Shown in pieces: positions 4,907 to 53,249 of a DNA stretch of 64,000 bases. Each line of letters starts with the position of its first letter. The stretch's first letter is position 1. Source of the DNA: Escherichia coli (lineage in GTDB: Bacteria; Pseudomonadota; Gammaproteobacteria; Enterobacterales; Enterobacteriaceae); NCBI RefSeq assembly GCF_003334305.1, contig NZ_QOWS01000002.1; one strand, 5' to 3'. A program made the translations under genes and the position numbers. Below the pieces are notes generated by a model. The model was not told where the DNA came from. It saw only the letters and a program-made list of their open reading frames with translations, and made no database searches.

Positions 4907-5166
4907 AAGTGCATCCAATGCGAATTTGCGAGAGAAAGAAAATGGCGTGTCGGAGAATGAATTGCAACACAAAAATAACAAATTGAATGATATTTATTTT
5001 TATTTCAATAATTTTGAATTAATAATGAAAGAATCTTCATAAGTTTAGTGGGTTCAGCATCAGAGATGTCTGGTGAGTGCTGTAGAAGCAGGAATAATCT
5101 CATTCAATTTTTCACGCTAAATGAAAGGGAGATTAAATATTTGTCAGTTTATGTCAGTGCGGAAAA

Positions 5167-45221: not shown

Positions 45222-47411
45222 TCAGAATTGATACGTGCTGGTAATGCTGAAATTACGCGGTGTGCCGTAGACGATAGAACCTTCCACGTTGGTATCGTAG
45301 GTTTTGTCGAACAGGTTATTGACGTTCCCCTGTAACGAGAAGTTTTTCGTCACCTGGTAGCGGGTGAAGAGATCCACCAGCGCGTAGCTACCTTGCTCGG
45401 CGCGGAAGGTGCCATACGGTGTCACGGTGTCGGTATACACGCGATTTTGCCAGTTAACACCACCGCCGACTGTCAACTCTGGCATGACAGGCAACCGATA
45501 GCTGGTGAACATTTTAACCGTGGTGCGTGGCAGATTAGGATTAACGGCGTTTCCTTCGTTATCCTCTGCAATATAGCGCGTTGCGCCAAATGTCAGCTGC
45601 CAGTTGTCGGTAATTGCGCCGTTGAGTTCAAATTCCACCCCTTTACTGACTGTCCCATCCACCGCTTTATAGGCGGTTTCGCCGTTGCTGCCGGGGATAG
45701 GTGTACCGGTGGACTGAGCGACATTATCCTGCTCAATACGGAAGATGGCTAATGTGGTGGTCAGACGGCTATTCATCCAGTCCGATTTCAGACCCAGCTC
45801 GTAGTTGTTACCGGTGATTGGAGCCAGATATTTGCCTGAACTGTCACGATCATTTTGCGGCTGGAAAATAGAGGTATAGCTGGCGTAGGTCGACCAGTTG
45901 TCATTGATGTCAAACACCAGACCAGCGTAAGGCGTGGTGTGGTTTTTCTCCATGCTGTAAGTCAGCGTATCAACCCGCCAGTTGGTATAACGTGCGCCGA
46001 GGATCAGATGCAGCGGATCGGCAAGGGTGACACGAGTGGCAGCATATAACGATTTCATATGTGTGGTATCGTCCTGCGCCAGGCTCTGTGGTGACCAGTC
46101 GGTTTGTGGGAAATTGCCATTAAAGTTGTAGAAACTGCCAATTTCATCCGGGAAGATGTTGGCCCATGAACTGAAGTAACGATTGTTTTGTTTGCTGTAA
46201 CTGCCACCAAACATTAGATTGTGCTGACGACCAAACAATTCATAACTACCGTCAGCGAACAAATCCAGCGCATCAACTTTACGTTTGCCACTGTTCCAAC
46301 CGGTGCCGCCGACATAATCAAAGCCAGGTCCATAATTACTGTATGGCCCAACCAGCATACCATCCGCTTTGTTTACATAGGCATCGACATACATCATTTT
46401 GCTGTCAAATTCGACTTCAGAGTGGGTGGCATTCAGCGTCGCTTGCCAGGTATCAGCAAACCGCTGCTTCAGGGTCATAAAGACCTTGTTGATCTCTTTA
46501 TCGTTGTACGCCCAGTCAGGTGCGGTACTGCGTGCACGATCGTAACTGTTGCTGCTGCCATCAGTATTCCAGCGCGGTAAACCGCCCCAGGTAGGGCTAT
46601 TAACATCAATGCGCTGATATTCGTAACCGGCTGAAAGCGTCGTAAGATCGCCTAAATCAGCATCGACAATGCCGGAGAAGAAGGTCTTTTCACTGTTGTA
46701 GCGGTCCAGCCATGAGTCGTTATTCTGGTAGCCGCCGACAATTCGCGCGCGGATTTTACCGTCTTCGGTGAGTGGGCTTTGTAAATCCGCCACATACCGT
46801 TCTTTGTTCCAGCTACCGTATTCCGCCGAGACATCGCCTTTAAATTCACGACTGGTCGCGTGTTTTCGAACCATATTAATTGCCGCAGATGGATTACCCG
46901 TCCCGGTCATGAGTCCTGTCGCGCCACGCACTACTTCTACGCGTTCAAAGAGTGCCATATCAGAAAGTGCGTCGCCCAGATTCCAGCGCGATTCAAAATA
47001 GGTGGGGATACCATCAACCATATAGTTATCGATCTGGAATCCGCGGGAATAATAAAGAGCACGATCGGAATCCGCCTGACTTTTGCTGATCCCCAGCGTG
47101 TTTTCCATCACTTCGCCCAGCGTTTGTAACTGCTGATCTTCCATCCGCTGCTGGCTAACAATAGTGACCGACTGAGGAATATCACGTTGAGTCATCTGCA
47201 TTTTGGTACCCGCAGAGGTAGACGTTACGCTGTAATCATTTTCGCCATCATCTGGAGCTGTGGCTGAACCCTCAACAATCACCGTTTCTTCAGTGGCTGG
47301 TGCAGCAAAAGCGGCAGAAGGTAATAGTGCCAGTGCTATGCAACCGGCAAGTAGTGATGGTTTGGTGCTGGCTTGATATTGATTATCCCTGTTAAATTGT
47401 GTTGAAAGCAT
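45222..47411 (-). CDS. fhuE: TonB-dependent ferric coprogen/rhodotorulic acid receptor
   Basis: 729 aa; signal peptide, TonB-box region and C-terminal aromatic residue (...TSTYQF). Confidence 0.95.
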   Translation of the reverse strand: MLSTQFNRDNQYQASTKPSLLAGCIALALLPSAAFAAPATEETVIVEGSATAPDDGENDYSVTSTSAGTKMQMTQRDIPQSVTIVSQQRMEDQQLQTLGEVMENTLGISKSQADSDRALYYSRGFQIDNYMVDGIPTYFESRWNLGDALSDMALFERVEVVRGATGLMTGTGNPSAAINMVRKHATSREFKGDVSAEYGSWNKERYVADLQSPLTEDGKIRARIVGGYQNNDSWLDRYNSEKTFFSGIVDADLGDLTTLSAGYEYQRIDVNSPTWGGLPRWNTDGSSNSYDRARSTAPDWAYNDKEINKVFMTLKQRFADTWQATLNATHSEVEFDSKMMYVDAYVNKADGMLVGPYSNYGPGFDYVGGTGWNSGKRKVDALDLFADGSYELFGRQHNLMFGGSYSKQNNRYFSSWANIFPDEIGSFYNFNGNFPQTDWSPQSLAQDDTTHMKSLYAATRVTLADPLHLILGARYTNWRVDTLTYSMEKNHTTPYAGLVFDINDNWSTYASYTSIFQPQNDRDSSGKYLAPITGNNYELGLKSDWMNSRLTTTLAIFRIEQDNVAQSTGTPIPGSNGETAYKAVDGTVSKGVEFELNGAITDNWQLTFGATRYIAEDNEGNAVNPNLPRTTVKMFTSYRLPVMPELTVGGGVNWQNRVYTDTVTPYGTFRAEQGSYALVDLFTRYQVTKNFSLQGNVNNLFDKTYDTNVEGSIVYGTPRNFSITSTYQF

Positions 47412-47489
47412 TTGAAATCTCTTGGTTTATGTTGTCGTCAGGCTCATGCCGGAGGAGGGTGATGAGCGGTTATATTTAGTGTGCGAATA

Positions 47490-47530
47490 ATTTTGTGTGT
47501 AAATGCAAATGAGAAATATACGCATTCATA
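47490..47530 (-). promoter_or_regulatory. Putative Fur box region upstream of fhuE
   Basis: AT-rich imperfect dyad (AAATGCAAATGAGAAATATACGCATTCATATTT) in the fhuE upstream region; loose match to GATAAT-type hexamer repeats. Confidence 0.3.
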
Positions 47531-47744
47531 TTTGACGTGTAAACCAAACAGAGAATGTCTTTTCAGCGCATTCGCAGGCAGAAATGGGAATAATGGCGAT
47601 ATATACGGCAGCAAAACGATTTTTTGCTTAAGAAATCGTGAGTTAAGGTTGAAAGAGCAGGTTTAACTCGACCATACTCTATACTCGCAGTGTGGCGCGG
47701 CGTAGCATGGCGCAACGCATGGCTATTTGAAAAAGGAAAATGTC

Positions 47745-48104
47745 GTGGCAGAAGAAACTATATTCAGCAAAATTATTCGTCGTGAGATCCCCTCCGATAT
47801 CGTCTACCAGGATGATCTGGTAACGGCGTTTCGCGATATTTCGCCGCAAGCGCCAACGCATATTCTGATCATTCCGAATATCCTCATTCCGACTGTGAAC
47901 GACGTCTCAGCTGAGCATGAGCAGGCGCTGGGACGCATGATCACCGTAGCGGCAAAAATTGCTGAGCAAGAAGGTATTGCCGAAGATGGCTATCGTCTGA
48001 TCATGAATACCAACCGCCATGGCGGACAAGAGGTTTACCACATCCATATGCACTTGTTGGGTGGCCGTCCGCTGGGACCAATGCTGGCACATAAAGGTCT
48101 GTAA
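47745..48104 (+). CDS. hinT: HIT-family purine nucleoside phosphoramidase HinT
   Basis: GTG start gives [24 protein letters not shown]... (119 aa) with the HIT motif HIHMHLLGG. Confidence 0.9.
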
Positions 48105-51944: not shown

Positions 51945-53249
51945 TTGACTACGCCATTGAAAAAGATTGTGATTGTCGGCGGCGGTGCTGGTGGGCTGGA
52001 AATGGCAACACAGCTGGGGCATAAGCTGGGACGCAAGAAAAAAGCCAAAATTACGCTGGTCGATCGTAACCACAGCCATCTGTGGAAACCGCTGCTGCAC
52101 GAAGTGGCGACTGGCTCGCTTGATGAAGGCGTCGATGCGTTGAGCTATCTGGCCCATGCGCGCAATCATGGTTTCCAGTTCCAGCTGGGTTCCGTCATTG
52201 ATATTGATCGTGAAGCGAAAACAATCACTATTGCAGAACTGCGCGATGAGAAAGGTGAACTGCTGGTTCCGGAACGTAAAATCGCCTATGACACCCTGGT
52301 AATGGCGCTGGGTAGCACCTCTAACGATTTCAATACGCCAGGTGTCAAAGAGAACTGCATTTTCCTCGATAACCCGCACCAGGCGCGTCGCTTTCACCAG
52401 GAGATGCTGAATCTCTTCCTGAAATACTCCGCCAACCTGGGCGCAAATGGCAAAGTGAACATTGCGATTGTCGGCGGCGGCGCGACGGGTGTAGAACTCT
52501 CCGCTGAATTGCACAACGCGGTCAAGCAACTGCACAGCTACGGTTACAAAGGCCTGACCAACGAAGCCCTGAACGTAACGCTGGTAGAAGCGGGAGAACG
52601 TATTTTGCCTGCATTACCGCCACGTATCTCTGCTGCGGCCCACAACGAGCTAACGAAACTTGGCGTTCGCGTGCTGACGCAAACCATGGTCACCAGTGCT
52701 GATGAAGGCGGCCTGCACACTAAAGATGGCGAATATATTGAGGCTGATCTGATGGTGTGGGCAGCCGGGATCAAAGCGCCAGACTTCCTGAAAGATATCG
52801 GTGGTCTTGAAACTAACCGTATCAACCAGCTGGTGGTGGAACCGACGCTGCAAACCACCCGCGATCCAGACATTTACGCTATTGGCGACTGCGCGTCATG
52901 CCCGCGTCCGGAAGGGGGCTTTGTTCCGCCGCGTGCTCAGGCTGCACACCAGATGGCGACTTGCGCAATGAACAACATACTGGCGCAGATGAACGGTAAG
53001 CCGCTGAAAAATTATCAGTATAAAGATCATGGTTCGCTGGTATCGCTGTCGAACTTCTCCACCGTCGGTAGCCTGATGGGTAACCTGACGCGCGGCTCAA
53101 TGATGATTGAAGGACGAATTGCGCGCTTTGTATATATCTCGCTATACCGAATGCATCAGATTGCGCTGCATGGTTACTTTAAAACCGGATTAATGATGCT
53201 GGTGGGGAGTATTAACCGCGTTATCCGTCCGCGTTTGAAGTTGCATTAA
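51945..53249 (+). CDS. ndh: Type II NADH:quinone oxidoreductase NDH-2
   Basis: Probable TTG start giving [25 protein letters not shown]... (434 aa); two Rossmann GxGxxG motifs. Confidence 0.92.

Follow-up and report, generated by a model that had tools for sequence, protein, structure and literature searches.

Direct repression of Escherichia coli fhuE by Fur, probably through a non-canonical operator at the -10 element

We analyzed the region upstream of the gene fhuE in a stretch of DNA of 64,000 nucleotides (hereafter, the window). The fhuE gene, which encodes the TonB-dependent receptor for ferric-coprogen and rhodotorulic acid, very probably has a sigma-70 promoter with a non-canonical Fur operator wrapped around its -10 hexamer and start site (47501-47526), through which it is repressed by Fur directly. 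Fur control of fhuE is already known and is textbook material, and the site has been both predicted and mapped genome-wide. Here we map the published data onto the window and show that Fur occupies the bases of this operator, that fhuE expression depends on Fur, and that the operator is conserved across genera.

The fhuE-hinT intergenic region and its promoters

The segment 47412-47744 had been described in an earlier note on this DNA as the fhuE upstream region. This description is correct: the list of open reading frames and the RefSeq annotation identify the segment as the complete 333-bp divergent spacer between fhuE on the minus strand and hinT on the plus strand, the latter starting with GTG at 47745. 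The window represents E. coli chromosome: a 733-nt query (47212-47944) had a match in each of the 5426 complete E. coli genomes, with identities of 90-100% overall and of at least 95% in all but one, and with the flanks annotated as fhuE and hinT. Compared to K-12 MG1655, the spacer contains four base differences (47469, 47497, 47535, and 47537), and 47498-47534 are identical. No terminators were found in a scan of the spacer.

A scan for consensus elements called one promoter-like site on each strand of the spacer (Table 1). The hexamers of the predicted and conserved fhuE promoter are of the sigma-70 type, matching the consensus at 10 of 12 positions across a 17-nt spacer, with the transcription start expected at about 47504-47510. 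On the opposite strand (47648-47680), all 40 orthologous spacers share GTTGAAAG and CATACTCT without change as the -35 and -10 elements of the hinT promoter, and the sequence AAGAAAT immediately 5' of the hinT -35 hexamer (47630-47636) is widely conserved as well.

A 15-bp palindrome, TGAAAC-N3-ATTTCA, is located approximately 33 nt upstream of the fhuE -35 hexamer in Citrobacter, Enterobacter, Leclercia, and Buttiauxella (loci L021-L060); it is degenerate and displaced in Escherichia (remnant at 47551-47566) and absent in Klebsiella and Raoultella. Many of the spacers bearing this palindrome, which may be an activator site, also contain GTTACA 10 bp upstream of TTTACA.

Table 1. Features of the fhuE-hinT locus, in window coordinates
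Feature	Position	Strand	Basis
fhuE coding sequence, 729 aa	45222-47411	-	ORF list; RefSeq annotation of identical E. coli locus; K-12 b1102
Candidate Fur-like 19-mer GATATTGATTATCCCTGTT (GATAATCAATATC on the minus strand), fhuE codons 7-13	47375-47393		7.7 bits, classic matrix; status uncertain
Hairpin GCUCAU...AUGAGC in the fhuE 5' UTR	47442-47467	-	Best local fold of the UTR, z = -2.8
Unexpanded (basal) allele of the hexanucleotide repeat TR4/O157-25, TGTAAA TGCAAA	47498-47509	+	One perfect and one degenerate unit
Fur ChIP-exo peak P31 of MG1655 (1160863-1160895)	47500-47532		Gao 2023; offset checked against K-12 annotation
Fur ChIP-exo peak of CFT073 (1305141-1305153)	47500-47512		Gao 2023; no offset needed
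Phylogenetically conserved operator block	47501-47526		Mean identity 0.95 vs 0.56 in the rest of the spacer
Second, weaker Fur register TATATTTCTCATTTGCATT, 6 bp downstream of the core, centre 47511	47502-47520		5.6 bits
Fur ChIP-exo peak of W3110 (1163221-1163233)	47504-47516		Gao 2023; no offset needed
Core Fur site, imperfect dyad AATGCGTATATTTCTCATT (fhuE sense), centre 47517	47508-47526		Best match of the seedless matrix
Fur ChIP-exo peak of BL21(DE3) (1164217-1164229)	47510-47522		Gao 2023; no offset needed
fhuE -10 hexamer TATATT	47515-47520	-	Consensus scan; invariant in 40 orthologs
fhuE -35 hexamer TTTACA	47538-47543	-	Consensus scan; unchanged in 40 of 40 orthologs, with a constant distance to the box
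AT-rich dyad AGCAAAACGATTTTTTGCT, not a Fur site	47610-47628		7/9 symmetric pairs; matrix score -7
hinT promoter: -35 TTGAAA (47649-47654), 18-nt spacer, -10 CATACT (47673-47678)	47649-47678	+	Consensus scan

Fur binding and Fur-dependent expression in published data

Mapping of MG1655 coordinates involved an offset between U00096.2 and U00096.3, which we take to be 777 bp. This value agrees with the position of the fepA peak relative to the gene coordinates and is backed by W3110, CFT073, and BL21, for which no offset was needed, the gene coordinates being taken from the same records.

Among the nine strains studied by Gao et al. (2023), all eight that carry fhuE show a Fur peak at this gene. 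The four peaks listed in Table 1, from MG1655, W3110, CFT073, and BL21, were all reported for iron-replete conditions only. The information-theory model of Chen et al. (2007; PMC2189734) predicts a 12.4-bit fhuE site at 1160880, which, with the 777-bp offset applied, corresponds to 47517, the exact centre of the core dyad. In the literature searched, there was no in vitro Fur footprint, gel shift, or start-site mapping for fhuE, and this gene is not among the footprinted or gel-shifted sites of Chen et al. (2007).

Deletion of fur changed fhuE expression by a log2 value of 5.0 in MG1655 and of 3.0-8.4 over the eight gene-carrying strains (Gao et al., 2023), that is, derepression of about 8- to 330-fold. 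The values for hinT in three strains were -0.17 to -0.47 (Gao et al., 2023). Published fhuE promoter-lacZ and translational fusions are repressed by Fur and do not depend on CsrA. Thus, the published data contain both iron-dependent occupancy of the fhuE operator by Fur in vivo and increased expression of the gene upon fur deletion. The expectation in the earlier note that fhuE is iron-regulated through Fur is borne out by the peaks at 47500-47532, the response to fur deletion, and the repressed lacZ fusions. The note would have abandoned this expectation had there been neither a matrix match nor iron-dependent expression; the match proved to be marginal (see below), and expression and binding are unambiguous.

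An additional MG1655 peak, P32, labeled 'hinT, intergenic' and bound under both iron-replete and iron-starved conditions (Gao et al., 2023), maps via the version offset to 47802-47835, inside the hinT coding sequence.

The Fur dyad at the -10 hexamer

The core site, which reads AATGAGAAATATACGCATT on the plus strand, is a Fur-like dyad with six of nine symmetric pairs. Its centre is located 106 nt upstream of the fhuE ATG, within the predicted -10 hexamer, so that the operator overlaps the core elements of a promoter that is itself predicted and conserved. Symmetric 19-nt matrices were trained on 17 promoter regions from K-12 operons whose repression by Fur is well known, with fhuE excluded. 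The seeded run converged on the classic motif, GATAATGATAATCATTATC, and the seedless run on a version of it displaced by 3 nt, the shifted motif AATGATAATCATTATCATT. The best regional match of both matrices falls inside 47505-47526, the seedless one selecting 47508-47526. Outside the core site, the second register (Table 1) is the sole positive one within 47490-47540.

The scan with a Fur matrix that the earlier note had proposed as a check gave a marginal result: the classic matrix found nothing above 3.9 bits in the spacer (shuffle p = 0.38), and the best match of the shifted one reached 7.6 bits when scored against an AT-rich background (shuffle p = 0.05). The individual information content (Ri) of the core site is 9.5 bits, compared to a leave-one-out median of 19.1 bits for the 17 known sites, only two of which are below it; five positions in the 64-kb window score at least as high as the core site, two of them at fhuE. 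The best matches to the classic and shifted consensus sequences are 11/19 (shuffle p = 0.85) and 13/19 (shuffle p = 0.14), respectively, and a 19-mer with at least seven of nine symmetric pairs occurs in 38% of the dinucleotide shuffles of the region. Accordingly, the caveat of the earlier note that the match to the Fur consensus is loose was accurate. Of its claim of an imperfect AT-rich dyad, for which no coordinates were given, the existence of a Fur-like dyad stands, at 47508-47526, and its symmetry does not exceed chance. Judged on sequence alone, both the dyad symmetry and the consensus match of the core site are within chance and the matrix match is marginal; it is the location of the site, the conservation, and Fur binding in published data, rather than the match as such, that raise it above chance. 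A seeded search for inverted repeats recovered only the arms at 47616-47639 and missed the Fur dyad because the arms of the latter share only 4-5 nt seeds.

The strongest Fur-like 19-mer of the window, AATGATATTTATTTTTATT (4986-5004, 16 bits), falls, according to the K-12 offset, within the AT-rich spacer that precedes yceJ-yceI. Gao et al. (2023) list iron-replete Fur ChIP-exo peaks in the yceI/yceJ intergenic region of W, KO11, and CFT073, but not MG1655. Another Fur-like 19-mer, ATTGAAAAAGATTGTGATT (51956-51974, 12.6 bits), overlaps the first codons of ndh, a gene for which no MG1655 ChIP-exo peak is listed and the log2 change in the fur deletion is just 0.39.

The main or an auxiliary operator could, alternatively, be the box within the leader-peptide codons of fhuE, acting as a roadblock, a possibility that we consider improbable. 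By hand count, this box matches the classic consensus at 13 of 19 positions, and it scores at least as high as the promoter site, with an overlapping 19-mer at 47378-47396 (box span 47375-47396, codons 6-13) reaching an Ri of 9.6 bits with the shifted matrix. Furthermore, the ChIP-exo peak of strain Sakai (1520750-1520762) maps to 47374-47386, within the same box, if its coordinates refer to the current record, NC_002695.2. However, the mapping is ambiguous with regard to the genome version, and the label 'Intergenic' given by the authors points to older coordinates, whereas the peaks of MG1655, W3110, CFT073, and BL21 are found at the promoter instead. The leader-peptide codons around the box also diverge outside Escherichia.

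Conservation of the operator

A scan of representative genomes yielded 54 fhuE loci, and the 40 of these with hinT as the divergent neighbor, which represent many enterobacterial genera, were used for the alignment. The operator block is the most conserved 26-nt window of the spacer, followed by windows in the hinT promoter. All 40 orthologs retain TTTACA-N17-TATATT together with AATG(C/A)GTATATTTC at fixed spacing, and the flanks diverge. The 19-mer homologous to the core site is the top matrix match in 31 of the 40, and some lineages possess additional, stronger boxes farther downstream.

Variation at the two symmetric inner positions of the dyad keeps or improves its symmetry. These positions are C/T in Escherichia and Klebsiella; C/G in Citrobacter, Enterobacter, and Leclercia, resulting in a perfect AATGCG/CGCATT dyad; and A/T in Buttiauxella, resulting in a perfect AATGAG/CTCATT dyad. 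An exact 28-nt word of the operator 33-mer is retained in 88% of the 5426 E. coli genomes, and the 33-mers flanking it retain one in 62% and 51%.

A share of the conservation of the block must be owed to the -10 and start region and not to Fur. In an alternative explanation, the block is a core promoter only (-10, discriminator, and start), with Fur control being indirect or exerted from elsewhere. The marginal matrix score and the location of TATATT in the centre of the block are compatible with this explanation, but the conserved stretch goes beyond the needs of sigma-70, including 6 nt on the upstream side of the -10 hexamer (AATGCG) and some 14 nt on its downstream side (TCTCATTTGCATT), and the 13-33-bp ChIP-exo peaks of four strains fall on the block, making it very unlikely. 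It is barely conceivable that the dyad meant in the earlier note was the one at 47610-47628 and that this is the Fur site: although it is the most symmetric 19-mer of the spacer, it has a negative matrix score (Table 1) and no listed ChIP-exo peak, lies 67 bp away from the fhuE -35 hexamer on its upstream side, adjoining that of hinT, and shows no conservation beyond Escherichia and, in part, Citrobacter.

The O157 repeat and the 5' UTR hairpin

The Fur operator of fhuE overlaps a locus used for strain typing. TR4, also denoted O157-25 or VNTR-25, an MLVA locus of E. coli O157:H7, is the same locus as the repeat in this spacer: the TR4 primers map to 47364-47382 (one mismatch) and 47677-47696 (exact), so the locus is present in the window with the array unexpanded. 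Its perfect TGCAAA unit (47504-47509) directly follows the fhuE -10 hexamer, and the repeat lies inside the Fur ChIP-exo footprint. In the fhuE sense, the window contains CATTTG CATTTA, compared to four CATTTG units in O157:H7 Sakai (L076) and five in TW14359 (L073). In O157 clades, the copy number is typically 3-8, and the typing papers treat the locus as an anonymous marker; in the literature searched, we found no paper linking the repeat with fhuE or its operator. In TW14359, RefSeq annotates a 62-aa hypothetical protein, ECSP_RS29930, spanning the fhuE promoter and the repeat, which is probably a spurious call.

Because the repeat lies inside the Fur-protected start region and its 6-bp period is also that of the Fur recognition units, a gain or loss of units in O157:H7 could modulate the repression by Fur or the fhuE 5' UTR, although we regard this as doubtful. 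In the data of Gao et al. (2023), Sakai, with four copies, displays the largest effect of fur deletion on fhuE (log2 8.4) and, among the eight strains, is the only one in which the fhuE peak is listed as bound under both iron-replete and iron-starved conditions, which hints in the direction of such tuning. When the O157 allele was scored with the Fur matrix, the extra CATTTG units added no positive registers, and there is therefore no matrix support for additional Fur binding units in this allele.

Separately, and with the same low level of confidence, post-transcriptional control of fhuE may be exerted by the 5' UTR hairpin, as an element not described before. In 18 of 20 orthologs, a hairpin of unrelated sequence occupies the corresponding place, some 50 nt ahead of the ATG. 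Within the Enterobacter-type clade (nine sequences), 92% of the cells pair and compensatory changes occur in five of 10 pairs, values reached by only 3-10 of 500 shuffles. RNAalifold applied to 27 diverse UTRs (MAFFT alignment) detected no shared structure, as this alignment did not bring the 5' arms into register, and the within-clade alignment alone worked. The Rfam 15 covariance models gave no matches up to E = 1 across 47200-47950, the hairpin included.

Mode of repression and comparison with known Fur operators

When iron is plentiful, Fe2+-Fur binds the dyad AATGCG-TATATTT-CTCATT centred on the -10 hexamer. Binding probably involves two dimers whose registers (centres 47517 and 47511) are offset by 6 bp, and the second, downstream register would cover the expected start site. 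The bound Fur would then exclude RNA polymerase from the -10/start region and thereby repress by occlusion. When iron is scarce, Fur would leave the operator and fhuE expression would rise within the approximately 8- to 330-fold range given above.

Similarly to the Fur boxes of E. coli fhuA, fepA-fes, cirA, fiu, and fecA, the fhuE operator is an AT-rich dyad over the core promoter of a gene for a TonB-dependent receptor, is occupied by Fe-Fur only under iron-replete conditions, and is associated with strong derepression in the fur deletion. Unlike those boxes, it matches the motif much more poorly (9.5 bits compared to the 19-bit median), although it is nearly invariant across genera. Relative to the shifted consensus, AATGAT...ATCATT, fhuE has lost all but the outer AATG and CATT, and its dyad has the -10 hexamer itself as its centre. 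The two positive registers 6 bp apart resemble the model of Chen et al. (2007; PMC2189734), in which a single-dimer (M9) site is combined with 6-bp clusters, and the score of 12.4 bits assigned to fhuE there is just above that of the weakest site (11.1 bits) in their 11-site model.

The fhuE operator can serve as a calibration case for the identification of Fur sites. The gene is among those most strongly repressed by Fur, and yet its operator does not reach significance in a consensus or matrix scan alone, whereas position at the -10 hexamer combined with conservation across genera picks it out cleanly.
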